From positions 136,829 to 150,460 of IMG/VR virus record IMGVR_UViG_3300014039_000016: 13,632 nucleotides of DNA, one strand, 5' to 3'. Below are positions 1 to 12,307 of this stretch, in pieces (position 1 is the stretch's first letter; the number at the start of each line of letters is the position of its first letter). The DNA comes from a virus. The notes under the pieces were generated by a model that was not told the origin of the DNA, ran no database searches, and worked only from the letters and a program-made list of their open reading frames with translations. The translations under genes were made by a program, and so were the position numbers.

Positions 1-20
1 AGGAATACTTCAAATGCCAC

Positions 21-62
21 CATTGGGTTCACTACAGCGAACCGGCAAGAATCGAACTTGCC
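21..62 (-). other. tRNA-like fragment. A canonical T-arm-like hairpin (GGCAAG TTCGATT CTTGCC on the minus strand) followed by a second hairpin (GGTTC..GAACC). No complete cloverleaf could be folded.
   Basis: On the minus strand the 7-nt loop TTCGATT matches the tRNA T-loop consensus and is flanked by a 6-bp stem. The region is GC-rich relative to its surroundings, like the two tRNAs next to it. I could not find a D-arm, an anticodon arm or a matching 5' acceptor strand. It may be a tRNA remnant, an att-core-like fragment, or continue beyond the window edge. Confidence 0.25.
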
Positions 63-184
63 ACATTCTTCATTCATACCTCTACCGAACACTGAAATCT
101 CTTCGGATATGAACATTGACAGTTTTAACAAGGTAACTGACAACTGACTGTTCGGTTTTGTTTACCCAGTTCCGCGACTGGGAG

Positions 185-255
185 CTCCTCCCCTGGGAAT
201 CGGACCCAGATTCTTCGCTTAACAGGCGAGCATCCTACCTTTGAATGAGAGAGGA
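185..255 (-). tRNA. tRNA-Asn, anticodon GTT, 71 nt, no encoded CCA
   Basis: The manual fold on the minus strand works. Acceptor TCCTCTC pairs with GGGAGGA (6 Watson-Crick pairs plus 1 GU). D-arm is ATTC/AAAGGTA/GGAT. Anticodon arm is CTCGC/CTGTTAA/GCGAA with anticodon GTT and one mismatch at the 27-43 pair. Variable loop is 4 nt. T-arm is CTGGG/TCCGATT/CCCAG. Discriminator is G, as expected for Asn. The T-loop has C rather than U at position 55, which is unusual. The island is GC-rich and sits immediately downstream of promoter 283-311. Confidence 0.6.
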
Positions 256-282
256 AAAATATTTTTTTTATCTTATATAAAT

Positions 283-311
283 ATTATAACATAAATTTTT
301 ATAAAAATCAA
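283..311 (-). promoter_or_regulatory. sigma-A-type promoter, family A. -35 TTGATT, 17-nt spacer, extended -10 TGtTATAAT. Drives tRNA-Asn.
   Basis: Minus strand reads TTGATTTTTATAAAAATTTATGTTATAAT, with an exact 17-nt spacer. The sequence is nearly identical to the other family members. Confidence 0.7.
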
Positions 312-329
312 ATTACTGTTATACGACCA

Positions 330-470
330 TAAGTAATTTGGTAGTTTTAACTAGATTTCGCTAGTAGGAGATTTTGTTCTCTTGGGTAAACCGCAGCCTT
401 AGTCGCTCTCCGTTAACCTCACCCTGCATACCTTCTTTTTTATAGAGGAGAAGCATGGGTAGTAACTTAC
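330..470 (-). ncRNA. Unassigned GC-rich element driven by promoter 490-518. Candidate structured RNA, possibly a non-canonical tRNA, or alternatively a 31-aa micro-ORF.
   Basis: The promoter points into this segment. Its GC content of about 50% stands out against a roughly 28% background, exactly as the two tRNA islands do. It contains local stems such as GGGTGAG/TTTACCC and GCAG/CTGC. No T-loop motif was found and no ORF above about 31 codons. Confidence 0.25.
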
Positions 471-489
471 CTCTTTTCTTTATATAAAT

Positions 490-518
490 ATTATATCATA
501 TTTTTTTATATTTTTCAA
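490..518 (-). promoter_or_regulatory. sigma-A-type promoter, family A. -35 TTGAAA, 17-nt spacer, -10 TGaTATAAT.
   Basis: Minus strand reads TTGAAAAATATAAAAAAATATGATATAAT. Confidence 0.65.
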
Positions 519-590
519 GTTTGTATTTTATATAAAAAATATTTTATAATACTTAAATCACTTTGTCCAAAAATTTTTAAAATTCTTAAA

Positions 591-664
591 TGGACCTTCT
601 GGGACTCGAACCCAGGACCATTCGCTTATGAGACGAGCGCTCTAACCAGCTGAGCTAAAGGACC
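591..664 (-). tRNA. tRNA with anticodon CAT (elongator Met or lysidine-type Ile2), 74 nt, no encoded CCA
   Basis: Minus strand reads GGTCCTT TA GCTC AGCTGGTTA GAGC G CTCGT CTCATAA GCGAA TGGTC CTGGG TTCGAGT CCCAG AAGGTCC A. The D-arm (TAGCTCAGCTGGTTAGAGC) and T-arm (TTCGAGT loop) are canonical. The anticodon loop is CTCATAA. G1-C72 are paired, so this is not an initiator. There is one T-T mismatch in the acceptor stem and one mismatch at the base of the anticodon stem. It is preceded by promoter 761-789 with a leader of about 85 nt. Confidence 0.75.
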
Positions 665-760
665 AAAACACAAGACACAGTTATCCACAAATATCTATTT
701 TAACAGAATAGGCTTATGAGCTAAATAAGTTGCTGTCTGTATCTTATTTATTATATAAAT

Positions 761-789
761 ATTATAACATATTTTTTTATAAAAATCAA
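761..789 (-). promoter_or_regulatory. sigma-A-type promoter, family A. -35 TTGATT, 17-nt spacer, -10 TGtTATAAT. Drives tRNA-CAT.
   Basis: Minus strand reads TTGATTTTTATAAAAAAATATGTTATAAT. It abuts the stop codon of CDS 790-1446. Confidence 0.7.
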
Positions 790-1446
790 TTAAATATCAA
801 AGTAATTAATTGATGAAATACCCAAGAGTTCATAATTAATATATGAAACAGAAGTATTCCAATTATCGTAAACTCTTAAAAATCTTAAATCTTTCTGTTT
901 TCCTGTCTTATTATTCTTAACTTTAAAAGTCTCTACTCCTACTACCAAAACAGAGTGGTCTTTATAATAATTTCGTCCATCTGTAAGAAGATTTAAAATC
1001 ATTGGATATTGCATATTCTTAATATAGCTTTTAATCTTTTCAAAATTAAAACCTATAACTGGAAAACCTTTTAAAAATTTACTCTTAGCCTTATACTTTG
1101 TATTTGGTATAAACTTATCTAAAGACCTTTGTAATAACGCAGATATTACAAGAGGATTAGTACCTTTTAATTCCCCATTATAACTGCAATACTTTTCCGC
1201 AATCTCCTCGATTATTGAATAAAGTCCTTCAGTAGAAAGATGTTTTATCTGCGCAACTTCTTTAATTAAGGCTGTTGCACTAACAAGAGTACAATCATTC
1301 TTCTTACCATAGTCATTTTGGTCTAGTGCGGGAATTAGTTTTCTTCTGTTTAAATCTACTTTCTCTCGAGATATAACAGTATAACCAAGACTTGTTACAT
1401 ATCTCATTATATTATATTCATGCAAACGCATACCATTATACATCAA
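790..1446 (-). CDS. Hypothetical protein, 218 aa. Possible papain-like (C39/CHAP-like) cysteine-peptidase fold.
   Basis: ORF with an AGAGGTG ribosome-binding site 7 nt upstream of the ATG. It is the last gene of a three-gene operon. A Cys sits in NDCTLVSATAL and about 110 residues later a His sits in DHSVLVVG, an arrangement reminiscent of Cys-His papain-like peptidases. This is a weak, unverified motif call. Confidence 0.55.
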   Translation of the reverse strand: MMYNGMRLHEYNIMRYVTSLGYTVISREKVDLNRRKLIPALDQNDYGKKNDCTLVSATALIKEVAQIKHLSTEGLYSIIEEIAEKYCSYNGELKGTNPLVISALLQRSLDKFIPNTKYKAKSKFLKGFPVIGFNFEKIKSYIKNMQYPMILNLLTDGRNYYKDHSVLVVGVETFKVKNNKTGKQKDLRFLRVYDNWNTSVSYINYELLGISSINYFDI

Positions 1447-1455
1447 ACAACACCT

Positions 1456-1740
1456 CTATATCTGAAAATTTACCGCTCTTGATTTCGCGTTCATCCAGTT
1501 CTTATATTTCCTCATTGCTGTTAAAGACTTCCAACCCCATGAAACAAAAGAACCATCTTCTTTAATTGTTACGACATCTGGCTTAAAATCCTTTATCAAC
1601 ATTCTCAGAAAATCATCGACTGATATATTAAGTACTCGCGCGGGAATTACCCATTTTTCCACATTGGTAGGAAAACTACTAGTATGCTCACAATACCAAA
1701 CACCACTTGCACCTTGCCATTCTTCCAAACGATATAACAT
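1456..1740 (-). CDS. Hypothetical protein, 94 aa
   Basis: ORF with an AAGGAGGTG ribosome-binding site directly upstream. Co-oriented and closely spaced with its neighbours. Confidence 0.6.
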   Translation of the reverse strand: MLYRLEEWQGASGVWYCEHTSSFPTNVEKWVIPARVLNISVDDFLRMLIKDFKPDVVTIKEDGSFVSWGWKSLTAMRKYKNWMNAKSRAVNFQI

Positions 1741-1762
1741 TCCCGCACCTCCTTAAATTAAA

Positions 1763-2080
1763 CTAAAAATCTAAATGTAACTCCGCAGCAAGCTTCTTAA
1801 CCGCTTCCTTCTCTGCCTCTGTTGCCTGAATCTTCTGTTCTCCAACTGTTGGGAAAGCTGAAGTCTGAACTCCTGATATATTGACTGTCGCACCTGGAAT
1901 AGCTGTATCTTCTCCTGGCTCAACATTAGTCTTTGCACAAGTTAAAGTTACTTTAATCTGTACCTCAGAACCATCTTCAATCAAAGGAATCCTTATCTCC
2001 TTACCATATCTAAAAGAATTATCGAAAGTTGATAACAACTTCTCTTCAATATATGTCTTGCTACTTGCACCTTTAGCCAT
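1763..2080 (-). CDS. Hypothetical protein, 105 aa. First gene of the operon.
   Basis: ORF with an AAGGAGA ribosome-binding site 9 nt upstream of the ATG, immediately downstream of promoter 2114-2142. Confidence 0.65.
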   Translation of the reverse strand: MAKGASSKTYIEEKLLSTFDNSFRYGKEIRIPLIEDGSEVQIKVTLTCAKTNVEPGEDTAIPGATVNISGVQTSAFPTVGEQKIQATEAEKEAVKKLAAELHLDF

Positions 2081-2113
2081 ATCTTTTTATCTCCTTATCT
2101 TTATTACATATAT

Positions 2114-2142
2114 ATTATATCATAAAATTTTATAAAAATCAA
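2114..2142 (-). promoter_or_regulatory. sigma-A-type promoter, family B. -35 TTGATT, 17-nt spacer, -10 TGaTATAAT.
   Basis: Minus strand reads TTGATTTTTATAAAATTTTATGATATAAT, followed by the conserved leader ATATATGTAATAAAGATAAGGAGA. Confidence 0.7.
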
Positions 2143-3135
2143 TTATAAATATGAACGCGTTGACTTCGGATGATGTTTGATTTTACAATTGCCGCAAAGC
2201 ATATATACATGATTCAATCCCTCTATCCAATATCTATCATCGCCCGCCTTAAAGATACGACCACAATAGTAACATTCTGTTACATCTTCCATTTTTAACG
2301 GCTTCGGAACATATGAATCACCTCTATAATTGTTTGGATTAAATTTTGGATATTCCTTTGGGATATACTCATAAGTCTTATGTCTACGAAGCTTCTGATT
2401 ATCCTTTAACATAGTCTTAACTCTTTCAATAGAGTCTGACAAGAAGTTTAAATTAATCCTTTCCATATCCATATGTTCATCAAAGTACCCAACAGAAAGA
2501 TTAACTGCGGCAATGCCCCACACTGGAGCTATTGTACTTATATCTGAAAAAGTTCCTGTCTCAGTTTCCCAACCAAATGAATTTATATATTCCTCAAATA
2601 ATTTATTATCACAGCCATAGAAAACGCAATCCTTCTCTCCTCTTCTATCTAACTGAATAAGATAATCACAATCTTTATTTGGTTCTGGATAATCTTCAAC
2701 AAATGCAGATGCCCCACTTCCGCCATATTCTTCATCATGTGTAAAAATAATAACTGCGGGTAAGAGACCTGCCTGCAAGATGCTAATGATACTATAAACG
2801 CCCGCCCTGTCATCTGCACCCAGTCCGCAAGTTCCTATAATTGTTGACTTATCTTTATCATAAAACATACTTTCTCTTGTTGGTGGTAACTCAAAGACAG
2901 TATCTAAATGTGCTAATAATCCAATATGACTTTTCTTAGGATTGCTTGTCTTAGCATATATATAATTCTCTGTTTCCACTACTTTATACTTATATCCTTT
3001 TAAAAGAACAACAAGTAAATCATGTAGTTCGTACTCCTTTAAACAAAGCAAATCCACAAAAGTTCTCAAATCATCTTTAGCTTCTTTTATTTTTATATAT
3101 TCCTTATATGCCCATTCTAATCTATTCTTTGTCAT
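2143..3135 (-). CDS. Clan MH (M20/M28/M42-like) zinc metallopeptidase/deacylase-like protein with a C-terminal CxxC...CxxC zinc ribbon, 330 aa
   Basis: Motifs appear in the order expected for co-catalytic zinc peptidases: AHLDTV (His-x-Asp metal ligand), GADDRAG (bridging Asp), HDEEYGG (Glu-Glu), then later acidic and His residues. The H-to-D-to-EE spacings of about 33 and 33 residues match M20-type enzymes. The C-terminus carries CYYCGR...CGNCK. The start overlaps the stop of the upstream gene by 14 nt. Confidence 0.6.
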   Translation of the reverse strand: MTKNRLEWAYKEYIKIKEAKDDLRTFVDLLCLKEYELHDLLVVLLKGYKYKVVETENYIYAKTSNPKKSHIGLLAHLDTVFELPPTRESMFYDKDKSTIIGTCGLGADDRAGVYSIISILQAGLLPAVIIFTHDEEYGGSGASAFVEDYPEPNKDCDYLIQLDRRGEKDCVFYGCDNKLFEEYINSFGWETETGTFSDISTIAPVWGIAAVNLSVGYFDEHMDMERINLNFLSDSIERVKTMLKDNQKLRRHKTYEYIPKEYPKFNPNNYRGDSYVPKPLKMEDVTECYYCGRIFKAGDDRYWIEGLNHVYMLCGNCKIKHHPKSTRSYL

Positions 3136-3985
3136 CTATATCCTCTTTTCTTTTCTCTTTATATTCTAATCCTTTTTCTGCAAGTGACCTCGCAACATGT
3201 TCTGCGGCAATGCATATTTGACAACCTGAAGAAGTATATCCGCATCTTTTGTGACAATTTTTTCTAATCTGCCCGAAAGTAGGTATAATTGAAGAATTTA
3301 TTTCTATATTGTCCTCAGGATTGTAACCACTGATAATTAAATTTAGAGGACCTTTCCAGCTCTGTTCCTTATATATTTTATATAAAGTATTCTGTTTATC
3401 TACAGGACCAAAAAACTCCATAACATCAACACAATCTTCATAATATTTTACATCTTCTGGTCTAATAAAAAACTTAGTAATTGATTTAATGCCATCTGCT
3501 CGACTAACGCTGCTCTGTGCTACATTAGGAAACACTCTGATTTTAACCTTATTCTTGCAGATATCATATTTAATGTCAGATAGGAAAAAAGCAAGTTCAT
3601 CTGTTATATATACATCTGTAACGCCTTCAGATATATACTGATTTAGTGCATCTATTGTATTTACCTTTTCACAATAAAAGAAAGGAAGCTTATTTTCTTC
3701 TACTCTTCTCATACATTCAACTGTTCTTGATATCATAAAAGTTATATTAGGATGTATTTCATAGCACATTTTAAAAACATTAATTGTTTGTTTAAGTTCT
3801 ATAGTAATCATATGTGTAACATCCACCACAATTCTCAAATCTTGTCTTTTACTTTTTACAAAATCAATAAGCGCAGATGCGTACTTTGTAAGTATTGGAT
3901 ATTTATTAAAATCATATTTAATAATAATTTCCTGTATTTCATCTTCATATGCAAAACCTTTAAACCAATTTATAGCATAGTTCAT
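3122..3985 (-). CDS. Hypothetical protein, 287 aa, with a C-terminal Cys cluster (C-x3-C-x6-C-x2-C...H)
   Basis: ORF with an AAAGGAGA ribosome-binding site 9 nt upstream. Its end overlaps the start of the downstream gene. The C-terminal CHKRCGYTSSGCQIC cluster suggests metal binding. I recognise no fold. Confidence 0.6.
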   Translation of the reverse strand: MNYAINWFKGFAYEDEIQEIIIKYDFNKYPILTKYASALIDFVKSKRQDLRIVVDVTHMITIELKQTINVFKMCYEIHPNITFMISRTVECMRRVEENKLPFFYCEKVNTIDALNQYISEGVTDVYITDELAFFLSDIKYDICKNKVKIRVFPNVAQSSVSRADGIKSITKFFIRPEDVKYYEDCVDVMEFFGPVDKQNTLYKIYKEQSWKGPLNLIISGYNPEDNIEINSSIIPTFGQIRKNCHKRCGYTSSGCQICIAAEHVARSLAEKGLEYKEKRKEDIDDKE

Positions 3986-4012
3986 TTATCACATCTCCTT
4001 TAAGCTAAAATA

Positions 4013-4040
4013 GGGAAGAAAACATTTCTGCTTCCTTCCC
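4013..4040 (-). terminator. Weak hairpin plus T-tract between CDS 4060-4485 and CDS 3122-3985. Possible attenuator or partial terminator.
   Basis: GGGAAG(GAAG) pairs with CTTCC(C) in a hairpin, followed on the minus strand by TATTTTA. No promoter copy lies downstream, so read-through into gene 3122-3985 is expected. Confidence 0.3.
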
Positions 4041-4059
4041 TCAGAACTGAAATATTATA

Positions 4060-4485
4060 TTACTCTGCGTCAGTCTCTTCAGATACACCAGCCGCGAGTG
4101 CATATCCCATAACTCTACGAGTATCACGCTTTACCTGCTCCTTACGAGCTTCACCTATCTGAACTAGCTGTGAAAGTCTAGCACCAACCTTAGCCACTGT
4201 AAGCTCACCAGTTTCATCTGTAATCTGCTCAAAAATCTCATCTCTTGTCTGAAGCTCTTCTGTTAAAACCTTTTTAACAACCTCTCTAAGAGCATCTCCC
4301 TCAGCCGCCTTTTCTGCTGCCTTCTCCTTAGCTCTTTCCTTCTTAGCCTCAAGCTGCGCAACTGTACTATCAACATAATTAATCACATCAGAATCCTGAA
4401 CATCACCATCAAAAACCATATTTCCAATATTAGCCTTAATTGTTTCAAGAATCATTGCCTTTGTAATTTTAACTGTCTCTGCCAT
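4060..4485 (-). CDS. Hypothetical Ala/Glu/Lys-rich protein, about 141 aa
   Basis: ORF directly downstream of promoter 4530-4558. The AAGGAGAT ribosome-binding site favours the second ATG (MAETVK...). Local GC content of about 45% is noticeably above the rest of the window. The sequence is probably coiled-coil, for example AQLEAKKERAKEKAAEKAAEG. Confidence 0.6.
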   Translation of the reverse strand: MAETVKITKAMILETIKANIGNMVFDGDVQDSDVINYVDSTVAQLEAKKERAKEKAAEKAAEGDALREVVKKVLTEELQTRDEIFEQITDETGELTVAKVGARLSQLVQIGEARKEQVKRDTRRVMGYALAAGVSEETDAE

Positions 4486-4529
4486 AATCATTATCTCCTT
4501 TTTCTTATCTTTATCTTTATTACATATAT

Positions 4530-4558
4530 ATTATATCATAAAATTTTTAAGAAATCAA
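4530..4558 (-). promoter_or_regulatory. sigma-A-type promoter, family B. -35 TTGATT, 17-nt spacer, -10 TGaTATAAT.
   Basis: Minus strand reads TTGATTTCTTAAAAATTTTATGATATAAT, followed by the leader ATATATGTAATAAAGATAAAG. Confidence 0.7.
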
Positions 4559-4574
4559 TTATTCTTAAAAGTTC

Positions 4575-4617
4575 TATATATGTAAGAAAGAAGCTTTCTA
4601 TCTTTCTTACATATATA
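4575..4617 (-). terminator. 17-bp perfect inverted repeat with a 9-nt loop. Probable intrinsic terminator for the upstream operon, or an operator site.
   Basis: TATATATGTAAGAAAGA, then AGCTTTCTA, then TCTTTCTTACATATATA. On the minus strand it is followed by GAACTTTT. It sits between two tandem promoter copies, and its right arm overlaps the -10 and +1 of promoter 4617-4645. Confidence 0.45.
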
Positions 4618-4645
4618 TTATACCATAAAATTTTCTAAACTTCAA
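4617..4645 (-). promoter_or_regulatory. sigma-A-type promoter, family B copy. -35 TTGAAG, 17-nt spacer, -10 TGgTATAAT. It is embedded in the 3' end of CDS 4635-6626 and fires into the palindrome.
   Basis: Minus strand reads TTGAAGTTTAGAAAATTTTATGGTATAAT. The -35 lies within the last three codons of the 663-aa gene. Confidence 0.55.
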
Positions 4646-6626
4646 ATTTTTTAAGATTACTAAAGAAATATTTTTCAACTTCTTTTTCATCTACCTTCCC
4701 ATTATTAATAAAGGTCATTGAAGTTAATCTTGATTCATTAAATATACTACTAAGATAGTAGTAACTGTAAACATAACAATCTCTAATAAGCATCTCTTTT
4801 TTATGGTCTCTAAAATATCGTAAACATGCAGGACACATATAAAGAGGTTCTGCATTTCTGCCCTCTGGTAATAAACGAGTCTCATTAAATTCTGCTGCTT
4901 TAGGCGAAGTTCCTGCAGTGTTAGGCTTTAAATTTTCATAACAATATTTCAAATCCTTAAAACGATTCTCATATTCATAACTAATCTTGTTTTCATCTCT
5001 CCAAAAACCACAATTATACGCTTTTTGGTCAGCTTCTTTTTCTGTAAGCATATATTTCTTAACATCATCATCTTTTAAATAAAAAGCAGCAATATTCGAC
5101 TCTCTTTCTATAGGAGTTTCTCCTAAGAGAAAAGGCTTTCCGCAGCAAGGGCATATATAATAACCTTTAATGCAATTTCTACATCTCGTAACAGTGACAT
5201 CATCATTATAATCTTCATCCCATGAAGAATAATCAGAAATATCAAAAGTGAAAAGATTCTCAGGACCTACAAAATCTCCGCAATGTTCACATTTCTTAGT
5301 ATTGGAACATTCTTTACAGATTAAATCTTCCGTATTTTTATATCTATCATTCCAATCTGGCTCATCATAATCATCATGGTCAGTATCAAACTCAAGTAAT
5401 GGTTTTCCGCAACTAATACAGATAACAGGTCCTGATATATTAATCTTTCTAGTATGATGAATTGGATTGCGGACGCACCAATAACCATAATAGTTATCAT
5501 TACACATATCATTATACATAGCATTATTAGTAAAGTAAATCTTCTTTGGGATAAAGTTATTCCTATCCTTGCTATTCTCCAAATCTCTATCAATTATATA
5601 ATCATCAAGAGAATTAACATTAAGCATATCCTTATATGGCTCAATACCAAACTTATAAGTCCAACCAAGATTCTTTTCCGCCAATTCTCGGATAACTTCA
5701 ATTAACTTCTTGCTAAAAGTATCATTCTTATAAGGGTAAGACTTACCTGATACAACGATATCCTTATTAACAAAAAGTAAACTTCTCCATTTTTTATCAT
5801 TCCAAAAAGGATTGTCTTTAGCATCTGAATTATCAGATTCCAATCCCATCATTCTACTATTGCTTTCCAGATAACAACAGAGTGCATTATTAGAGTTCAT
5901 CATTTCATATGAACCAACCCTGTAACATCCGCTACGCTTCCACGACATGCAAGAAGACCAATCACTATTGTTATCACTCATAGTCATAAAGTCTAATGGG
6001 TGAATTGAAAAACAAAGATTACCCGCAAGTTCTTTCTCATTTAAAATGAGAGAAATCTTAATACGGACTTTCTCAAAGAAATCTATAATTTCCTTATCTG
6101 CGTTGCAATACTTTAATATTTTTCCAACAGCTCTGAATACTTTTGTCCCTGAAGGAATTTTTCTTTCCTTTAAAGACCCAGTATCATCAACTGGGCGCAG
6201 AAAAATATCATAATTCGTTAAATTATTAATTAATGCACGCTTTTCAAAGATATGGTCAAAAAGCGGCGGTATCCAATATCCGGCTTCATCAATACAGTGT
6301 CTTAAAGTGCTTAAAGCATCAACAGAATCCAAATAAACACTACATTCCTTTGCGATATCGTTTTCTGGTTTTTCATAATTAAATGGAATCTTGTAAATCA
6401 TCTGATTTCCAAGTAACTTATATAGAGTATTCTTACAAATACTCCACTTCTCAAGGAATTCTTTTAAAGGAATATACATTCCCTTATCTACTGGTGCGGC
6501 AATATAATCATTTATTTCATCAGACCAATGATTAATGCCATGAATACCCCATCTATAATAATACTCCGAAATCTTCTGAATATCTTCCTCCGTTAATTTT
6601 TCATATAAATCTATTCTTTCTTTCAT
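4635..6626 (-). CDS. Large hypothetical protein, 663 aa, with a multi-CxxC (zinc-ribbon-rich) C-terminal half
   Basis: Long uninterrupted ORF. Its start is coupled to the upstream gene (TAA-T-ATG) with an AAGGAG ribosome-binding site 11 nt upstream. It contains at least eight CxxC or CxC pairs, for example CISCGKP, CKECSNTKKCEHCG, CRNCIKGYYICPCCGKP and CPACLRY. I recognise no catalytic motif. Confidence 0.75.
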   Translation of the reverse strand: MKERIDLYEKLTEEDIQKISEYYYRWGIHGINHWSDEINDYIAAPVDKGMYIPLKEFLEKWSICKNTLYKLLGNQMIYKIPFNYEKPENDIAKECSVYLDSVDALSTLRHCIDEAGYWIPPLFDHIFEKRALINNLTNYDIFLRPVDDTGSLKERKIPSGTKVFRAVGKILKYCNADKEIIDFFEKVRIKISLILNEKELAGNLCFSIHPLDFMTMSDNNSDWSSCMSWKRSGCYRVGSYEMMNSNNALCCYLESNSRMMGLESDNSDAKDNPFWNDKKWRSLLFVNKDIVVSGKSYPYKNDTFSKKLIEVIRELAEKNLGWTYKFGIEPYKDMLNVNSLDDYIIDRDLENSKDRNNFIPKKIYFTNNAMYNDMCNDNYYGYWCVRNPIHHTRKINISGPVICISCGKPLLEFDTDHDDYDEPDWNDRYKNTEDLICKECSNTKKCEHCGDFVGPENLFTFDISDYSSWDEDYNDDVTVTRCRNCIKGYYICPCCGKPFLLGETPIERESNIAAFYLKDDDVKKYMLTEKEADQKAYNCGFWRDENKISYEYENRFKDLKYCYENLKPNTAGTSPKAAEFNETRLLPEGRNAEPLYMCPACLRYFRDHKKEMLIRDCYVYSYYYLSSIFNESRLTSMTFINNGKVDEKEVEKYFFSNLKKFEV

Positions 6627-6627
6627 A

Positions 6628-6840
6628 TTACATATAACTCCTTATTAAATTAACGACTCTGACTTTATCGTCCTCCATTAAATCAATATAAGCCTGATTA
6701 TCTACTATCTCCCCAATTAAAAGCTGCGGGTCCCGCCCTGCTTCTAGTGCCTGCTTACATTGACGCATTATTTCATTTGCATCATCATCGCTCTGCATAA
6801 TCATATAATCAAAGGCATCTCCCATTCCGAACATACTCAT
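6628..6840 (-). CDS. Small acidic protein, 70 aa, net charge about -8
   Basis: ORF coupled to the upstream gene through an ATGA overlap, with an AAGGAG ribosome-binding site. Asp/Glu-rich. Confidence 0.55.
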   Translation of the reverse strand: MSMFGMGDAFDYMIMQSDDDANEIMRQCKQALEAGRDPQLLIGEIVDNQAYIDLMEDDKVRVVNLIRSYM

Positions 6841-7196
6841 ACACCAAGCTCCTTTCCGCAGTACTCTTTAATGAAACTTTCATGTCCAAGATTACAAACA
6901 ATATTATCTAATTCATTAGTTTCCATATCCTTGTACTCATCTTTAATCTCATAAATGTTCCAATATAATTCCTCAGCTGAACCATCCCATTCTGGAAATT
7001 CTCCTGACTCTTCATTATAATCTGACTGAGACATCGCATATTCATCTTCAAGACCATAATTAGTAATAAGGTCATACGCCATTTCTTTACCCATAGCATT
7101 ACCTTCATCAAGAGAATTGATTTCAGTTACACACATGTCCTCAATTCCATGTAAACCCTGATACATTCCTTCAGTTGCGTAAATAAATACTTTCAT
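6837..7196 (-). CDS. Highly acidic protein, 119 aa, about 29 Asp/Glu against 6 Lys. Candidate DNA-mimic or anti-restriction protein.
   Basis: ORF with an AAGAGGT ribosome-binding site 7 nt upstream. It is the first gene after promoter 7229-7257. Its size and net charge of about -23 resemble Ocr/ArdA-type DNA mimics. This is a charge-based inference only. Confidence 0.6.
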   Translation of the reverse strand: MKVFIYATEGMYQGLHGIEDMCVTEINSLDEGNAMGKEMAYDLITNYGLEDEYAMSQSDYNEESGEFPEWDGSAEELYWNIYEIKDEYKDMETNELDNIVCNLGHESFIKEYCGKELGV

Positions 7197-7228
7197 AAAT
7201 CATACCTCTTTTCTTATTTTCTATATAT

Positions 7229-7257
7229 ATTATATCAAAAATTTTAAAAGAAATAAA
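7229..7257 (-). promoter_or_regulatory. sigma-A-type promoter, family B. -35 TTTATT, 17-nt spacer, -10 TGaTATAAT. Its -35 is formed by the U-tract of the upstream terminator.
   Basis: Minus strand reads TTTATTTCTTTTAAAATTTTTGATATAAT. Confidence 0.6.
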
Positions 7258-7280
7258 GCTGAGCTAAGTTACCCAGCTTT
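7255..7280 (-). terminator. Rho-independent terminator of the 7712-7279 operon
   Basis: 7-bp stem AAAGCTG/CAGCTTT with a 12-nt loop, followed on the minus strand by TTTATTTCTTTT. It overlaps the stop codon of CDS 7279-7500. Confidence 0.55.
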
Positions 7281-7500
7281 AATCATCAAAACCGTCATAG
7301 TAATCTTCATCATAGAATCCATCTTCATCATAATACCCATAAGCCATATAATCTTCATCATCATAGTCTTCGCGATAACATTCAGCTATCCACGGACAAT
7401 TTATACAGTTAGGACGGTCCGCGCAATTTTTACTCTGCTCTATATCTTCAGGTGGTCTCTTGGGATATTCACTAATCCTCTTTGCATCTATATCTTCCAT
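7279..7500 (-). CDS. Acidic protein, 73 aa, with a four-Cys motif and a D/E/Y low-complexity C-terminal tail
   Basis: The AGGAGGT ribosome-binding site is 6 nt upstream of the internal ATG (MEDIDAK...). The track's longer start would include that ribosome-binding site. The protein contains CADRPNCINCPWIAEC and the tail YREDYDDEDYMAYGYYDEDGFYDEDYYDGFDD. Confidence 0.55.
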   Translation of the reverse strand: MEDIDAKRISEYPKRPPEDIEQSKNCADRPNCINCPWIAECYREDYDDEDYMAYGYYDEDGFYDEDYYDGFDD

Positions 7501-7511
7501 AGTTATACCTC

Positions 7512-7712
7512 CTAACACATAATCATTGAATCAAGAATTGACTGCTCATGCATTTCCGCACATGATACAGAAGTTCCAACAGCTAAATCTTCAACATAGC
7601 AAACCTCGCCTAAGTGATTTACATACTGACCTGGTTCAAAAAACTTATCTGTAATTAAAGTATGTCTTGCTCCATTACCATTTACTAAAGTGTATTCAAA
7701 TACCATATGCAT
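7512..7712 (-). CDS. Small hypothetical protein, about 65-67 aa
   Basis: The track ORF runs up through the promoter. The real start is probably ATGCATATG (MHMVFEY...) downstream of the AGAGAGG ribosome-binding site. Confidence 0.45.
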   Translation of the reverse strand: MHMVFEYTLVNGNGARHTLITDKFFEPGQYVNHLGEVCYVEDLAVGTSVSCAEMHEQSILDSMIMC

Positions 7713-7740
7713 TACCTCTCTTTTCTTATTTTCTATATAT

Positions 7741-7769
7741 ATTATATCAAAAAATTTAAAAAATATCAA
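7741..7769 (-). promoter_or_regulatory. sigma-A-type promoter, family B. -35 TTGATA, 17-nt spacer, -10 TGaTATAAT.
   Basis: Minus strand reads TTGATATTTTTTAAATTTTTTGATATAAT. Confidence 0.65.
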
Positions 7770-8014
7770 TAGCGCACAGTAAGAATGTTAGTTGATACAT
7801 TATACGACCATGCAGCAACTAAAAACGCATTTTCATTTTCTACATACTGCGGCAATGTATATCTAATCTCCACGCCTTCTTTCTTAGCTGAGCCAAGCCC
7901 GCTCATTCTGTCTGTCTTAATTGGCACAAAACAGATGTGCATATCTGAAACCTGTACTGTTGACATGATATCTTCTACAAGAGAAGATAATATTGTTATT
8001 CTTTTTTCTATCAT
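7766..8014 (-). CDS. Hypothetical protein, 82 aa
   Basis: ORF. Its start codon directly abuts the stop of the upstream gene (TAATG). Confidence 0.5.
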   Translation of the reverse strand: MIEKRITILSSLVEDIMSTVQVSDMHICFVPIKTDRMSGLGSAKKEGVEIRYTLPQYVENENAFLVAAWSYNVSTNILTVRY

Positions 8015-8211
8015 TAATAATCATTCCTTTCATGTTTAGAATATTTTTCAAGCTTTCTGCGGCGATTGTCTACTCTTGCAGGTGCAGTTCCACGCTTAGG
8101 TAAGTACTTGCCGCAATGTTGACAAGCTTTTCTAAATGTTCCTTCTCTGCCTTTTGAGCATTGACCTTCACAAATATAATACTGACATATTATTTCTCTA
8201 TCTCTTGCCAT
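8015..8211 (-). CDS. Small basic zinc-ribbon protein, about 65 aa
   Basis: A GAGGT ribosome-binding site lies 7 nt upstream of the internal ATG (MARDREII...). It contains CQYYICEGQC...CQHCGK, then a Lys/Arg-rich tail. A nucleic-acid-binding role is possible. Confidence 0.5.
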
Positions 8212-8221
8212 TATAATTACC

Positions 8222-8680
8222 TCACTTTTCATATTTTTTTATTAAATCATTAGTTTCATCTTTGATAGGTGATAAAGGGTTATAGTCTTTATCCCACTTA
8301 ATCTCTAAATTAGTAATTATTCCTCTTAAACGATAACTATAAAATAAATAATCAAAATTCCAATATCCGCCATAAATTGCATCAGTATATAATACTTTAT
8401 ATCCTTGTACTTCATACTTCTCTAACAAGGTTAAAAATAAATCAAATTGTTTCTTATATTTTAAGTATTTTTTAGAGTTTTTATTTATCTCATATGAGAC
8501 ACCTCTATCAAATACTAATAAACGATTAATAAGGAGACTCTGCTCATTAATATCACAAGCTGAAAGAATTTCATTATCTATTTTTTTCTCCCATTTTTTC
8601 AGAAAATGCTTGTCTGCTCTTGTTAGAGTTACCTCACTATTTTCCTGAGATAATCTTTGTGCAGTATGTAGCGATATCAT
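8222..8680 (-). CDS. Hypothetical protein, 152 aa
   Basis: ORF with an AAGAGGTG ribosome-binding site. First gene after promoter 8714-8742. Confidence 0.6.
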   Translation of the reverse strand: MISLHTAQRLSQENSEVTLTRADKHFLKKWEKKIDNEILSACDINEQSLLINRLLVFDRGVSYEINKNSKKYLKYKKQFDLFLTLLEKYEVQGYKVLYTDAIYGGYWNFDYLFYSYRLRGIITNLEIKWDKDYNPLSPIKDETNDLIKKYEK

Positions 8681-8713
8681 ATTTATTCACCTCTTTCTCT
8701 TTTCTATATAAAT

Positions 8714-8742
8714 ATTATATCATATTTTTTTATAAAAATAAA
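8714..8742 (-). promoter_or_regulatory. sigma-A-type promoter, family A. -35 TTTATT from the terminator U-tract, 17-nt spacer, -10 TGaTATAAT.
   Basis: Minus strand reads TTTATTTTTATAAAAAAATATGATATAAT. Confidence 0.6.
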
Positions 8743-8763
8743 GGAGGCATAAAAGCCTCCTTT
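8740..8763 (-). terminator. Rho-independent terminator of the 10226-8773 operon
   Basis: 9-bp GC-rich stem AAAGGAGGC/GCCTCCTTT with a 6-nt loop, followed on the minus strand by TATTTTTAT. Confidence 0.65.
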
Positions 8764-8772
8764 CCGCACATT

Positions 8773-9150
8773 TTATTTAATGAATATTCTTAATATCTGT
8801 AGTATAATATTTAGTATACCCGCGATAATTAATAATAAATAAAAACAATTTATACTCTTGATTTCTTTTTTCTTGTCCTCTTTTTTCTCATAAACAAAAG
8901 ATAATATCAAAAAAATAACTGCTGCGAGTGCAAGACATAAAATTAAAATTGCTATAATCCAGAAAATAACTTTTAATACTAACAAGTGTCCTCCTTCCAC
9001 AGACTCTACTAAAGCTGAGAATCCTATAAAATATGTCCAAATCGCAAATAAAAAATCAAATATTCTTTCTCCTCGATTTTTTAAGATAACTGTTACTGCA
9101 ACACCTGCAATAAAAATTATAATACATGACAATTTTATCCAAAATTCCAT
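8773..9150 (-). CDS. Integral membrane protein, 125 aa, about four predicted TM helices
   Basis: ORF with an AAGGAGGT ribosome-binding site. Long hydrophobic stretches are separated by short charged loops. Confidence 0.6.
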   Translation of the reverse strand: MEFWIKLSCIIIFIAGVAVTVILKNRGERIFDFLFAIWTYFIGFSALVESVEGGHLLVLKVIFWIIAILILCLALAAVIFLILSFVYEKKEDKKKEIKSINCFYLLLIIAGILNIILQILRIFIK

Positions 9151-9163
9151 CTATTTTACCTCC

Positions 9164-9310
9164 TTAATCCATAAATGTAAAAAAACAATATAAAAACATG
9201 AAAATAAAAATTGTAACTAATAGAATTAAAGGTTTATTTATTATAACACAAAATACTATTATAGCAATAATAATTAGAGTTATAATTATTAATAATGTGC
9301 TATCGTCCAT
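9164..9310 (-). CDS. Small hydrophobic membrane peptide, 48 aa. Not in the ORF track.
   Basis: ATG preceded by an AAAGGAGT ribosome-binding site. Sequence is MDDSTLLIIITLIIIAIIVFCVIINKPLILLVTIFIFMFLYCFFTFMD. It packs tightly between its neighbours. Confidence 0.4.
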   Translation of the reverse strand: MDDSTLLIIITLIIIAIIVFCVIINKPLILLVTIFIFMFLYCFFTFMD

Positions 9311-9324
9311 AATCTATACTCCTT

Positions 9325-9498
9325 TTAATTTCCAACATAACCTAAACTAAAGCCCATTATAAACATTAATGAAGCTACTGCTAAACCAGTTGAGATTTTA
9401 TATACAATTTCATTTGTTGTTACACAACTTATGGTATAACAAATTAATAACATAATGATACTAATTATTATACCTATACCTAACGCCGCACTCTCCAT
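9325..9498 (-). CDS. Small hydrophobic membrane peptide, 57 aa. Not in the ORF track.
   Basis: ATG preceded by a GGGAGGT ribosome-binding site. Sequence is MESAALGIGIIISIIMLLICYTISCVTTNEIVYKISTGLAVASLMFIMGFSLGYVGN. Confidence 0.4.
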   Translation of the reverse strand: MESAALGIGIIISIIMLLICYTISCVTTNEIVYKISTGLAVASLMFIMGFSLGYVGN

Positions 9499-9521
9499 GT
9501 ATTTCTACAACCTCCCATAAA

Positions 9522-10226
9522 TTATAAATATTCATTCCAGCCTGAAAAGTCAAGAATAATAGGGTCGCCATTTTCTCTGAAACCAATATTACCATTATGT
9601 AAATCTTCAACTACATTAGGAAATTCACTTTCTAAGAAGTCAATAAGTTTATCAACCATAGCCTTTCCATATCTTTCAATAGCAGCAGCAACCCATGAAG
9701 AATCTGCAAAACAATAATATTTTGAATCTGAATTAACAAAATTTAATGTTTCATCTTCTGAGACAGGACAATATTCATAGAAGTCTAATACTCTTTCCTG
9801 TTTGATAACAGTACCAGACTCACATTCTCCCATAATCTCTGTTTTTGGGAAAAAGATATCTAAACCATTCTCTTTTGCAGCTTCATAAACCTCATATTCT
9901 GTTAAACAATAGTCCCAACCTCGGTCCTCAGAATTGTCTGCGCCTCTAAATCTTGTAAAATAATCGTGGTCTACTGATTCATCATAATCCCACTTACCAG
10001 AATAAGGAACTTTGAGAACAGAGCTGCAGCCGGAAACAACAGCAACAGCCTTAGTTGCACCACGATATGCGCCGCCTGCAATCTTAGCATCTTTTAAAGC
10101 TTCTGAAATTAAAATTGTATTTTCTTCATCATCTTCATCATCGTCCCAGCCAAATTTCTCAGGAACTTTCTTTACAATTTCATTAAACACTTTTGTTAAT
10201 TTATCTTCTAATAATAATGTTGCCAT
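9522..10226 (-). CDS. Hypothetical protein, 234 aa, with an acidic N-terminal region
   Basis: ORF with an AAGAGGT ribosome-binding site. First gene after promoter 10262-10290. Confidence 0.65.
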   Translation of the reverse strand: MATLLLEDKLTKVFNEIVKKVPEKFGWDDDEDDEENTILISEALKDAKIAGGAYRGATKAVAVVSGCSSVLKVPYSGKWDYDESVDHDYFTRFRGADNSEDRGWDYCLTEYEVYEAAKENGLDIFFPKTEIMGECESGTVIKQERVLDFYEYCPVSEDETLNFVNSDSKYYCFADSSWVAAAIERYGKAMVDKLIDFLESEFPNVVEDLHNGNIGFRENGDPIILDFSGWNEYL

Positions 10227-10261
10227 ATTTATATACCTCTTTTCCTTTTCTTTATATAAAT

Positions 10262-10290
10262 ATTATAACATAATTTTTTACAAAAATAAA
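10262..10290 (-). promoter_or_regulatory. sigma-A-type promoter, family A. -35 TTTATT, 17-nt spacer, -10 TGtTATAAT.
   Basis: Minus strand reads TTTATTTTTGTAAAAAATTATGTTATAAT. Confidence 0.6.
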
Positions 10291-10311
10291 GCGGAGTATA
10301 GGACCCCGCTT
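10289..10311 (-). terminator. Rho-independent terminator of the 11373-10310 operon
   Basis: 6-7-bp stem AAGCGG/CCGCTT followed on the minus strand by TTTATTTTTG. It overlaps the stop codon of CDS 10310-10828. Confidence 0.5.
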
Positions 10312-10828
10312 AGTCTATCTTAAATTGAAAATCTCCGCCACTTTCATCAAGGTAATCATCTATTGATACATTAGGGTTTATTCTCTCAAGGACTTTGTCT
10401 GTATGAGAGCGAGAAAGAGAAATAAGTGCTTTTTTATTAGCTTTTGTGCGGCAAGTGGTACAAATACAATCACCAAAAGTAGCTATAGCTGTTGGAGTAA
10501 ATTCATATACATAATTAAAATCTCTTCCGTTATGCATCTTATTCTTATGTTCATCATACCACTTTTTTATTGATTCTTTCTCTTTTTCATTTACCGTAAA
10601 AGACTGATTTAAGATTTTTCTTAATCTATCAATTTCACTTTTCAATTTAGCAAGCTCCGCGTCTTTATAATGTTCGCTCTTGAGAGACTTGTTTTCCGCA
10701 ATTAACTCATCATTTTCTTTTAAAAGTCTTTTCATATTCCATTCAAGCTGAAAAAGAGATTCATCTACTTCTTTTTCTGTGCTTATAATTTTAATAGGAT
10801 TATCTTCAATATAACATATTCCCGCCAT
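10310..10828 (-). CDS. Hypothetical coiled-coil protein, 172 aa, with a C-terminal CxC..C motif. Paralogue of the upstream gene.
   Basis: ORF. Its start overlaps the stop of the upstream gene (TAATG), with a GGAAGGAG ribosome-binding site. It has an N-terminal heptad-rich region and the motif FGDCICTTCRTKA. Confidence 0.6.
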   Translation of the reverse strand: MAGICYIEDNPIKIISTEKEVDESLFQLEWNMKRLLKENDELIAENKSLKSEHYKDAELAKLKSEIDRLRKILNQSFTVNEKEKESIKKWYDEHKNKMHNGRDFNYVYEFTPTAIATFGDCICTTCRTKANKKALISLSRSHTDKVLERINPNVSIDDYLDESGGDFQFKID

Positions 10829-11373
10829 TATTCTTCTCCTTCCCAGGGGTATTTAGTTACTCTATATGAAACACCCTTCTTCCGCATTAATTCTAAAAGC
10901 TCATCATAGTTTAAATCTCTATGATTATTATATAATATCTTTGCACATTTAGCACAATAGCAAGTAGCTTCAGTTCCATTAATACCTGGTTTAAATACGA
11001 AGAATCTGTCTTTTGGTTTTAGGGGCGATTCTTTACGCTCTTGTATGTGCGCTTCCTCTCTATGATGCTGCCACCATTCTGTTATTCCGTAATTCTCATA
11101 TGTTGAAATAGTGAAGCTATTATAGTAACGCTCCTTATATTCTGCTAATTCTGCTTGTGTTTGAAGAAGGTCTTCTTTCAATTTCTTTATCTCTTCATTC
11201 TTATAAAGTTCTTCATCTAAGTTATTTACATAATTGCGCATTTCTAAAACTCTATCTTTAAGAGTGTTAAGACTTTCTGCGGTGTTGTTAAATGCTTCAT
11301 CAATAGTAGGTTTCTGCTCTTTCGTAAATAAGTCCTTTACTTTTTTACATTTGTTTAAATCATATGTCTCCAT
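10829..11373 (-). CDS. Hypothetical coiled-coil protein, 181 aa, with a C-terminal CxC..C motif
   Basis: ORF with a TAGGAGGA ribosome-binding site 7 nt upstream. It has an N-terminal coiled coil and the motif TEATCYCAKCAKI. Confidence 0.6.
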
Positions 11374-11404
11374 AAAATATTCCTCCTATTGTTTTTCTAC
11401 ATAA

Positions 11405-11433
11405 ATTATATCATATTTTTTTATAAAAATCAA
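11405..11433 (-). promoter_or_regulatory. sigma-A-type promoter, family A. -35 TTGATT, 17-nt spacer, -10 TGaTATAAT.
   Basis: Minus strand reads TTGATTTTTATAAAAAAATATGATATAAT. A short GC hairpin (AGCGGCGAAGCGCT) lies just upstream. Confidence 0.7.
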
Positions 11434-11568
11434 GCGGCGAAGCGCTCTTTAAAGAAACTTGTAGGGACCTATCATGAATTTTATAGACCCAACAGCCGCA
11501 GCAAGAAAAATAAGGCTTAATTGGAGAAAACGAAGGATTTCTGTATTTCCGAACAAAAGCGATTATCT

Positions 11569-11595
11569 GCAAGTGAAAATGTAGAAATCCACTTG
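11569..11595. promoter_or_regulatory. Inverted-repeat operator candidate (CAAGTG, 14-nt spacer, CACTTG) overlapping the -35 of the rightward promoter
   Basis: Perfect 6-bp half-sites. The right half shares bases with the TTGAAA -35 element. Confidence 0.35.
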
Positions 11596-11621
11596 AAAAA
11601 AAAGAAAAAATTTGATATAAT
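11593..11621 (+). promoter_or_regulatory. Rightward sigma-A-type promoter. -35 TTGAAA, 17-nt spacer, -10 TGaTATAAT.
   Basis: Plus strand reads TTGAAAAAAAAGAAAAAATTTGATATAAT. It is divergent from the leftward promoter at 11405-11433. Confidence 0.7.
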
Positions 11622-11645
11622 ATTATTGTAAGGAGGAATTAAAGA

Positions 11646-11819
11646 ATGATTATTGTTTGTGATATAAATTGTAAGTATAGAAATTCCAATGGCTTTTGTA
11701 CAAAAGACATTGTTCATATAGATAATAAATGTATTTGTAATGAAATGTATAAACCAACAGAGAAGATTGAGCGGAAACCGCAGATTGGTGAAACTTTAAT
11801 CTTGACTGAAGAAACTTAA
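11646..11819 (+). CDS. Small Cys-rich protein, 57 aa. Not in the supplied ORF track.
   Basis: An AAGGAGG ribosome-binding site lies 9 nt upstream of the ATG. Sequence is MIIVCDINCKYRNSNGFCTKDIVHIDNKCICNEMYKPTEKIERKPQIGETLILTEET. It is the first gene after a strong promoter. Confidence 0.5.
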   Translation: MIIVCDINCKYRNSNGFCTKDIVHIDNKCICNEMYKPTEKIERKPQIGETLILTEET

Positions 11820-11833
11820 AGGAGGGTTTCCGC

Positions 11834-12037
11834 GTGACATTAGAAGAATTAGCAGAAGAATTGGGTGTGAAACCTAATTATTTAAGAAAAAGATTTCAAG
11901 ATGTTAAAAAGAATAGAGAAAAGATAGGTATAATTATTGAAAAAGTAGGAAGAGCGGCTTCCGCGGAATATGGTATAAAAACATGGTATGATAGTGAAAT
12001 TAGATATGAGCATCTTGACCCAGATGATTTTGAATAA
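11834..12037 (+). CDS. Small HTH DNA-binding protein, 67 aa, GTG start
   Basis: An AAGGAGGG ribosome-binding site lies 8 nt upstream of the GTG. It has a helix-turn-helix-like segment LEELAEELGVKPNYLRKRF. It is paralogous to the N-terminus of the 260-aa protein. Confidence 0.6.
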   Translation: MTLEELAEELGVKPNYLRKRFQDVKKNREKIGIIIEKVGRAASAEYGIKTWYDSEIRYEHLDPDDFE

Positions 12038-12051
12038 AAAGGAGAAAATAA

Positions 12052-12294: not shown

Positions 12295-12307
12295 AGAAAA
12301 TATTACT

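Follow-up and report, generated by a model that had tools for sequence, protein, structure and literature searches.

Here, we describe a set of repeated promoter cassettes in a stretch of phage DNA from IMG/VR virus record IMGVR_UViG_3300014039_000016 (positions 136,829 to 150,460), the whole 13,632 nucleotides (nt) of which we call the window and number from 1. The window has a GC content of 31% and matches the end of the 151,093-bp metagenomic contig ENA ERZ808287 NODE_10 with 99.99% identity over 12,080 nt, stopping ~100 nt short of the contig end in that source assembly. Judging by this match, it is the terminal part of the 151-kb genome of an uncultured gut phage. On the minus strand, from 11,433 down to 1, eleven short transcription units hold ~20 small genes, together with tRNA-Met and tRNA-Asn. 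A plus-strand island at 11,646-13,375 encodes four proteins, including an 80-amino-acid (aa) CodY-type winged helix, and has iteron-like repeats at its end.

An earlier inspection of the DNA, referred to below as the original prediction, had picked out twelve promoter modules in this region, eleven on the minus strand and one on the plus strand, and all twelve are found where it placed them. They are best explained as strong promoters for a host housekeeping sigma, of the type known from Gram-positive bacteria, and what keeps them alike beyond their hexamers is purifying selection acting on a promoter class of the whole clade rather than recent copying. The repeats are unusually uniform; the layout itself is already known from other large phages.

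Cassettes and the units they head

All twelve sites carry TGnTATAAT behind a spacer of exactly 17 nt, and the fixed spacing and TG extension that had been proposed are therefore present in every copy. The -35 hexamer is TTGATT at five sites, TTGAAA at two, TTGAAG at one, TTGATA at one and TTTATT at three. Upstream of the -10 stands TATG in nine sites and TTTG in three; a TRTG motif in the '-16 region' of Gram-positive promoters was reportedly described by Voskuil and Chambliss in 1998. The sites also share an A/T spacer, a 6-nt discriminator made up of A and T only, and a purine-rich start. The predicted start is a purine 7 nt downstream of the -10, and the first 12-20 transcribed nt are C-free and purine-rich. 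Every site is intergenic and oriented as the next gene; what follows is either a tRNA or, after 25-40 nt, a ribosome-binding site with its ATG. In hexamers, spacing and orientation they agree with the reading of the original prediction, namely sigma-70/sigma-A-type promoters at a rate of about one per small transcription unit.

The first transcribed bases had been sorted into two subfamilies. We find three leader types and two odd sites instead. Type A is ATTTAT-ATAA (sites 283, 490, 761, 8714 and 10262), type B is ATATAT-GTAA (2114, 4530 and 4617) and type C is ATATAT-AGAAAATAAGAAAAGAG (7229 and 7741), while the odd leaders belong to site 11405 and the plus-strand site 11621.

Cassette coordinates are given from the -35 to +12, and the features listed here lie on the minus strand unless otherwise stated. 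Nearest the start of the window, P283 (265..311; -35 TTGATT, -10 at 283-288, leader A) drives tRNA-Asn (184-255) and is unchanged in the relatives L118 and L119. P490 (472..518; TTGAAA, -10 at 490-495, leader A) drives a ~170-nt unit (312-480), and P761 (743..789; TTGATT, -10 at 761-766, leader A) drives tRNA-Met (590-665). Three genes of 105, 94 and 218 aa (1763-2080, 1456-1740 and 790-1446) are driven by P2114 (2096..2142; TTGATT, -10 at 2114-2119, leader B). The 143-aa gene (4060-4491), which is followed by an intrinsic terminator (4012..4041), is driven by P4530 (4512..4558; TTGATT, -10 at 4530-4535, leader B). This site forms a tandem with P4617 (4599..4645; TTGAAG, -10 at 4617-4622, leader B), which lies 87 nt upstream and whose -35 begins 5 nt past the stop codon of the 663-aa gene.

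Farther along, P7229 (7211..7257; TTTATT, -10 at 7229-7234, leader C) drives genes of 119, 70 and 663 aa, and P7741 (7723..7769; TTGATA, -10 at 7741-7746, leader C) drives genes of 64 and 73 aa. P8714 (8696..8742; TTTATT, -10 at 8714-8719, leader A) is followed by genes of 152, 65 and 82 aa, and P10262 (10244..10290; TTTATT, -10 at 10262-10267, leader A) by a 234-aa gene and three small membrane-like genes. The last minus-strand cassette, P11405 (11387..11433; TTGATT, -10 at 11405-11410), has the atypical leader TTATGTAGAAAAA and drives genes of 181 and 172 aa. Divergent from it is the plus-strand cassette (11593..11639, plus strand; TTGAAA, 17-nt spacer, TGATATAAT, -10 at 11616-11621), which drives genes of 57, 67 and 80 aa, the last encoding the CodY-type helix-turn-helix (HTH) protein.

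Similarity among the cassettes

A degenerate 31-nt pattern matches the eleven minus-strand sites and nothing in 200 dinucleotide-preserving shuffles. Over the 32 positions outside the hexamers and the TGn triplet, the mean pairwise identity among the twelve sites is 0.67, compared with 0.28 for the 53 other TATAAT sites in the window and a maximum of 0.33 over 2000 resamples of 12 of these. AT-richness therefore fails to explain the likeness, and the concern raised at the outset, that AT-rich DNA might give as much similarity by chance, can be set aside. Measured against local composition, the information content is 5.7 bits in the -35, 13.2 in the spacer, 7.0 in the -10, 5.1 in the discriminator and 8.0 in +1..+12.

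Two details of the original prediction had to be narrowed. An A/T spacer is indeed common to the sites, but the exact sequence put forward, TTTATAAAAAAATATG, is present in only three of them; the other spacers differ from the 17-nt consensus at 1-7 positions, nearly all of them A/T exchanges. Likewise, the plus-strand site has hexamers of the same kind and a 17-nt spacer but is not a near-identical copy, with seven spacer and nine leader mismatches to the consensus. The possibility of a bidirectional promoter was dropped, as the reverse strand of the cassette offers a weak TATTAT with neither TG nor a -35. Further copies do exist elsewhere in the replicon: the source contig has 17 co-oriented cassettes within ~16 kb, in addition to the divergent plus-strand site, and some of these lie in the tRNA cluster downstream of the window.

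Conservation in close relatives

The close relatives, with 86-87% nucleotide identity, are the IMG/VR phage contigs L118/L074 and L119 (145-147 kb). A 156-kb contig from a Hadza gut sample is a further relative, and L204 served as an additional close relative in the cassette comparisons. As a test of selection, the window was aligned with L118 and L119, and figures are given in that order. Third codon positions are identical at 0.78 and 0.75, a synonymous-site divergence of 22-25%, while the cassettes are nearly unchanged. The -35 hexamers are identical at 72/72 and 71/72 positions, and the -10 hexamers and the discriminators each at 72/72 in both relatives; identity is 0.96 and 0.97 in the spacers, and 0.97 and 0.96 in +1..+12.

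Quirks of individual sites are kept position by position in L118, L119 and L204: P4617 retains its TTGAAG, P7741 its TTGATA and T6, and P10262 a G within its spacer. This inheritance by position shows that no recent copying or homogenisation has occurred since the lineages split by 13% in DNA and, taken together with conservation above that of third codon positions, it indicates that the cassettes are old positional orthologs under purifying selection. The invariant positions coincide with the sigma-contact positions. Substitutions in the spacers of orthologs are mostly A/T swaps at spacer positions 10-12, the boundary between the A-tract and the T-tract (judged by eye and untallied), a distribution that would fit a constraint on composition or shape.

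Distribution across the clade and a second promoter class

An exact pattern with 27 specified bases is matched by more than 117 stretches in IMG/VR, lying mostly on contigs of 120-190 kb. It is also present in 55 stretches of the genome collection, all of them contigs of metagenome-assembled genomes or uncultured isolates and, where the title names a source, mostly from the guts of ruminants or other animals; no genome-collection record titled as a cultured isolate contains it. The taxon labels of the 55 stretches are mutually incompatible, which suggests that they are phage contigs that have been mis-binned.

For comparison across the clade, 23 loci were picked solely by homology to the 663-aa protein (28-38% identity). 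They contain 82 non-redundant TTGATT-type sites with the consensus TTGATT TTt.taAAAAtTTtTGa TATAAT AttTAT AgAAA, whose spacer, discriminator and start region hold 14.6, 4.9 and 8.4 bits. The DNA that the window has in common with its distant relatives consists of the cassettes (90-94% identity over 50-60 nt) and a few coding segments (68-72%), and nothing else. In the clade-wide gene order (25-60% identity), which occupies 2143-6626 on the minus strand of the window, the 663-aa gene is followed by genes of 143 and 287 aa, the M28-like peptidase, genes of 105 and 94 aa, and then the tRNA cluster; promoters stand at equivalent places within it.

A second class of sites, found in the related loci and in L204, combines TTGACA with the same TGnTATAAT. 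Its spacer, discriminator and start region hold 8.1, 1.7 and 4.1 bits, and an A/T-tract region upstream takes the place of the extended conservation. In the Staphylococcus phage ISP (Herelleviridae, 31% GC), 17 promoter-like sites give 4.2, 1.4 and 3.3 bits for the spacer, the discriminator and +1..+12. Against both of these sets, the 13.2, 5.1 and 8.0 bits of the window bear out the claim that its sites are conserved beyond what recognition by RNA polymerase needs. On these figures, the TTGATT class is a promoter class with extended constraints of its own. The presence of two promoter classes in the same genomes offers a contrast that bears on what the spacer and the start add beyond the hexamers.

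A TTGACA family with a non-A/T spacer and TGnTAYAAT recurs every ~1.2 kb in L204 (16579, 17916, 19114 and 20132, plus strand) and also occurs in L123, L124, L139 and L199. The leaders of the L204-type family have GC-rich hairpins such as CCGGCAAAGCCGG, followed by CGCGCAGAGCGCG, and the units look like repeated genes for small structured RNAs.

Leader types

Leaders of the same type are grouped into blocks along the source genome (other / AA / CC / BBB / AAAAAA / B / A). All four cassettes that verifiably head tRNA units are of type A, which also heads two protein operons, and types B and C head protein genes only (Fisher exact test of leader type against tRNA or protein unit, ~0.015, calculated by hand). 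The assignment of leader families to operons that had been proposed therefore survives in part: type A does head the RNA genes and some proteins, but the large-protein operon lies behind the C-type P7229 and not behind a B-type site. The peptidase operon had also been counted as a target of family B, which is not the case. Neither the 287-aa gene nor the peptidase gene has its own cassette; both lie behind the terminator at 4012-4041, and the peptidase gene is itself upstream of site 2114. At greater distances, a position does not retain its leader type; the promoter before the 105-aa gene is of type B here and A-like in L121.

Transcripts are predicted to start with A at types A and C, and with G at type B. 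Krasny et al. reportedly showed in 2008 that, in Bacillus, the +1 base couples promoters to ATP or GTP pools. Coupling of this kind would be one meaning of the leader families.

Two of the leaders and units merit a separate description. The 119-nt leader of P4617 folds with -22.4 kcal/mol (z = -3.6) and has at the 5' end of the transcript a 29-nt hairpin (4582..4610, minus strand), which starts at the predicted +1 and is formed by the type-B leader and its inverted copy. The hairpin is kept in L118, L119 and L204, and it may act as a 5'-terminal stabiliser or as an attenuator before P4530. The ~170-nt unit of P490 (312-480) matches neither a tRNA nor any Rfam family, and its fold is not better than those of shuffled sequences (z = -1.0); it is a candidate for a small RNA or a 34-aa micro-ORF. 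Rfam scans of window positions 1-800 and of the L118 tRNA region returned tRNAs only.

The first 582 nt of the window, which hold the P490 unit, are 95-96% identical to the relatives, compared with 86-87% elsewhere in the window. A promoter-led unit of 247 nt that resembles the P490 unit is present in L118 and in the source contig (L209) and absent in L119.

Terminator fusion and recombination

Four cassettes had been described as fused to the terminator of the preceding operon. This is clear for three of them, where an intrinsic terminator on the minus strand runs into the cassette: 7254..7281 at P7229 (-12.2 kcal/mol), 8740..8763 at P8714 (-14.6 kcal/mol) and 10289..10311 at P10262 (-11.7 kcal/mol). 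In each case, the U-tract of the terminator is the TTTATT -35. The fourth, P4617, has no upstream hairpin. Over the twelve cassettes, a terminator stem-loop is thus clear at three, weak at one (a GC hairpin of -4.0 kcal/mol at 11432-11447, abutting P11405) and absent at eight, and the stems are mutually non-homologous. A hairpin abuts 13/19 TTTAnn variants of the -35, compared with 16/105 TTGA[A/T/G]n sites, 7/61 TTGACn sites and 18/208 random positions. Given this enrichment at the TTTAnn variants, the U-tract of the terminator also serves as the T-rich -35 and as the beginning of the spacer. Terminators and promoters also abut or overlap in the published annotation of ISP.

Cassettes have also served as the ends of insertions and deletions. 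Where L118 has two cassettes 247 nt apart, L119 has a single chimeric cassette, whose upstream flank is that of the first and whose downstream flank is that of the second, the junction lying inside the start region. A two-to-one cassette indel of the same sort separates L122 and L123 from L124, making two clean cassette-to-cassette indels in all. Additionally, an insertion of 245 nt in L118 immediately follows the start region of its P761 ortholog.

Both L118 and L119 have an extra 163 nt between tRNA-Met and P490 that are missing from the window (window positions 578 and 745).

Comparison with known systems

By analogy, the cassettes can be matched in function and architecture to two known kinds of element: the promoter-early stem-loop (PeSL) cassettes of T4-type phages (Arbiol et al. 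2010, PMC2839356; Comeau et al. 2014, PMC4122927) and the early sigma-A promoter arrays of SPO1-like phages. In common with PeSL cassettes, they are repeated intergenic elements with a strong host-type promoter, presumably early here as it is there, which in some of them is joined to a stem-loop terminator, and their conservation reaches past the hexamers. They too lie upstream of small genes without assigned function in variable regions, most window genes having no match in Pfam, PHROG or NCBIfam. Indels between close relatives are likewise bounded by two cassettes and leave one chimeric cassette behind.

The differences are equally plain. The present cassettes are Gram-positive in style (TGnTATAAT, T(A/T)TG), whereas PeSL promoters are of the E. 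coli sigma-70 type. Their conserved parts are the spacer, the discriminator and the start, in place of an AT-rich upstream region and a GGGG/CCCC stem. Stems occur in only 3-4/12 and are not conserved between cassettes. Unlike PeSL cassettes, they also head tRNA units, and they are known from sequence alone, in a phage that is not known to be T4-like. On these data, PeSL-like architecture with cassette-bounded gain and loss of units is not confined to T4-type phages.

As for SPO1, its host-takeover genes were reportedly arranged in 12 operons, according to Stewart et al. in 1998. The host-takeover module of this phage comprises 24 host-takeover genes (PMC10531801) and is also covered in PMC13401047. 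In the P100-like Listeria phage CKA15, mapped early start sites carry TTGACTT and ATGnTATACT and fall into two sigma-A-like classes (PMC12282133). The window resembles the arrays of SPO1, Kayvirus ISP/K and CKA15 in its many short operons of small genes, close to the genome end and to tRNA genes, each with a housekeeping-sigma promoter of its own. It differs from them in the -35, which is TTGATT here and not TTGACA, and from ISP in the conservation of the spacer, discriminator and start, which is not seen at the ISP promoter-like sites. No homology to SPO1 genes was seen for the window. A possible link to Herelleviridae comes from the peptidase alone, with 42% identity.

A third parallel concerns the uniformity of the promoters. 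Early promoters of T4 and T5 are reportedly more uniform and richer in information than host promoters, with A/T-rich spacers and conserved initial transcribed regions that are said to be linked to very high strength and efficient escape; the work is attributed to Liebig and Rueger in 1989 for T4 and to Gentz and Bujard in 1985 for T5. ADP-ribosylated polymerase reads a portion of this additional conservation in T4. The present cassettes, for which no such factor is known, differ from these promoters in host group and in sequence.

Proposed mechanism and alternative explanations

We consider it likely that the sites are sigma-A-type cassettes, near consensus and strongly selected, that host polymerase uses unaided, probably early in infection. 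Host RNA polymerase with its housekeeping sigma would bind through the -35 TTGAnn, the T(A/T)TG or TG element and TATAAT, with no helper factor. A class that can be used without help right after DNA entry would, for that reason, be expected to serve early genes. The A/T spacer and the G/C-free discriminator would lower the cost of bending and melting, and a purine start followed by a C-free, purine-rich stretch of 12-20 nt would favour quick escape, with leaders that appear to run straight into strong ribosome-binding sites. Each cassette heads a short unit, made up either of tRNA or of one to four small genes. When a terminator precedes it, reuse of the U-tract creates a compact terminator-promoter junction that would insulate adjacent units. 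Since the cassettes are direct repeats of ~50 nt, they may also act as recombination points at which units are gained or lost.

Several points weigh against this picture. For the present phage, both 'early' and 'host sigma-A' are readings of the DNA, as is the biophysical reason suggested for the constraint on spacer and leader. ISP and the TTGACA class manage without the extended features, so polymerase recognition alone does not demand them, and a class-specific factor is a possible reason for the extra conservation. A terminator accompanies just 3 or 4 of the 12 cassettes. The recombination signal is limited as well: an indel boundary lies at most 5 nt from a cassette in 7/28 events between close relatives, where ~2 would be expected if breakpoints were random, but this excess is modest and partly expected because indels and cassettes are both intergenic.

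In a bolder reading, the spacer, discriminator and start of the TTGATT class might be read by a clade-wide phage or host factor, or by a modified polymerase, and the class be controlled in a coordinated way apart from the TTGACA class, with the cassettes doubling as PeSL-like linkers for shuffling genes and tRNA units. We regard this combination as rather unlikely. If true, modular evolution of the PeSL type would reach as far as the large phages that infect Gram-positive bacteria of the gut.

A related proposal, which we judge unlikely, is that a DNA-binding factor encoded by the phage or the host reads the spacer, a near-palindrome of the form T5-ATA-A5-7, or the start, as an operator placed over the promoter. 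A factor reading the spacer would switch the whole promoter set together, for instance to shut off early genes. It would account for extended conservation that is class-specific and absent in the TTGACA class and ISP, and many copies do carry the palindrome TTTTTATAAAAA in the spacer. There are also precedents, in that SPO1 Gp33 acts on phage early promoters (PMC13401047) and a phage G1 anti-sigma factor is cited in PMC12282133. However, the mostly A/T character of the spacer substitutions, which shift the tract boundary (again by eye, untallied), fits composition or shape better than base readout, and what the clade as a whole retains is the tract pattern without the palindrome.

The adjacent divergent operon encodes a protein that could have filled such a role. 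The 80-aa product of 12,052-12,294 (plus strand) consists of a CodY-type DNA-binding domain on its own (Pfam HTH_CodY, E = 2e-9; NCBIfam CodY, E = 2e-12), without a GAF sensor domain. CodY boxes are AT-rich 15-nt palindromes, and for this reason it was tested as the spacer reader. A scan of the window for the box (AATTTTCWGAAAATT) gave 10 matches with 3 mismatches versus 4.8 expected, which is not an enrichment; only two of the matches are in spacers, with 3 mismatches each and both lacking the C and the G of the box. The protein reaches 99% identity in relatives whose remaining DNA matches at ~87%, and homologs were found in that narrow group alone, whereas the promoter class is clade-wide. 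With no box enrichment and with homologs only in near-identical relatives, it was rejected as a clade-wide explanation, though it may act as a local regulator, and no further candidate turned up. No sigma factor appears among the 25 of 81 matched Pfam families that were listed for 86 large proteins from all fetched loci, which is not evidence of absence. A lambda Q-type site in the spacer with a -10-like pause element was also considered and dropped, as TAnnnT occurs in only some leaders.

We think it very unlikely that the extended similarity is a relic of local tandem duplication or gene conversion, with spacer and leader bases hitch-hiking and no function beyond the hexamers. The blocks of leader types are what copying or conversion between neighbours would give, and cassette-to-cassette recombination does occur in relatives. 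Yet the site quirks are inherited by position in L118, L119 and L204, and the spacer, discriminator and +1..+12 keep 96-100% identity versus 75-78% at third codon positions. The comparison with L118 and L119 largely refutes this history. The recent duplication of a promoter cassette that the original prediction had offered is contradicted in the same way, by positional orthologs kept across 22-25% synonymous divergence and by the recurrence of the consensus in a clade of phages with ~30% protein identity. Finally, although cassettes stand at some indel junctions and iteron-like repeats at the window end, it is scarcely credible that the repeats are primarily recombination, replication or packaging signals merely resembling promoters, since the extended -10 is perfect in 12/12, the -35 is TTGAnn in 9/12 and TTTATT in 3/12 at a spacing of exactly 17 nt, 12/12 are co-oriented 25-40 nt upstream of a ribosome-binding site and ATG or before a tRNA, and the invariant positions are exactly the sigma-contact positions.

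Host-polymerase promoters under strong selection, our preferred explanation, would have practical uses. They supply an information-rich promoter model for annotating transcription units in a widespread clade of uncultured 120-190-kb gut and rumen phages, and they are candidate strong, compact promoter-terminator parts for low-GC Gram-positive bacteria. Two features deserve most attention: conservation that is specific to one promoter class, and behaviour like that of PeSL cassettes in a clade whose promoters are Gram-positive in style.

Gene content of the window and its surroundings

Searches of Pfam, PHROG and NCBIfam with the ~20 small minus-strand genes gave almost no matches, the single informative one being the M28-like peptidase. 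For all window proteins together, the whole set of domain matches in Pfam, PHROG, NCBIfam and PDB sequences consists of this peptidase and HTH domains. Family and PDB sequence searches with the 663-aa and 287-aa proteins were without a match, and many window genes have homologs confined to the closest relatives. Against cultured phages, neither megablast of the full window nor tblastn with the 663-aa protein gave any match. The best cultured relatives of the peptidase are Enterococcus Herelleviridae phages, at the 42% identity mentioned above.

Downstream of the window, the source contig (L209, 11292-20318) has 20 tRNA genes in several promoter-led units, with small genes carrying PDDEXK_5 and cREC_REC domains scattered among them. 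In the relative L122, a suppressor-type tRNA with the anticodon TTA lies at 20716-20786, and one fetched locus, possibly bacterial, encodes a protein with a release-factor domain (PCRF/RF-1). Together, these hint that stop codons are recoded in parts of this collection; for the window itself, the standard code works well.

Other repeats and over-represented words

Behind the plus-strand operon lie a perfect 20-nt inverted repeat (12308-12327 / 12381-12400), a terminator-like hairpin (12409-12428) and a 30-nt inverted repeat (12432-12504). The gene for a 260-aa HTH protein is followed by a hairpin (13376-13423), a 37-39-nt tandem repeat that contains AAATGTATTAAAA and is present in 2.4-2.6 copies (13449-13548), and a (TA)14 run (13582-13610). 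The arrangement at 13376-13632 looks iteron- or origin-like.

In the window as a whole, CCGC/GCGG occurs 71 times versus ~16 expected by base composition, and TTCCGC occurs 15 times versus 1.4 expected. A GC-rich word over-represented in a phage of 31% GC might be a modification, primase or recombination signal. In the minus-coded part, the CCGC/GCGG word is mainly GCGG on the coding strand.

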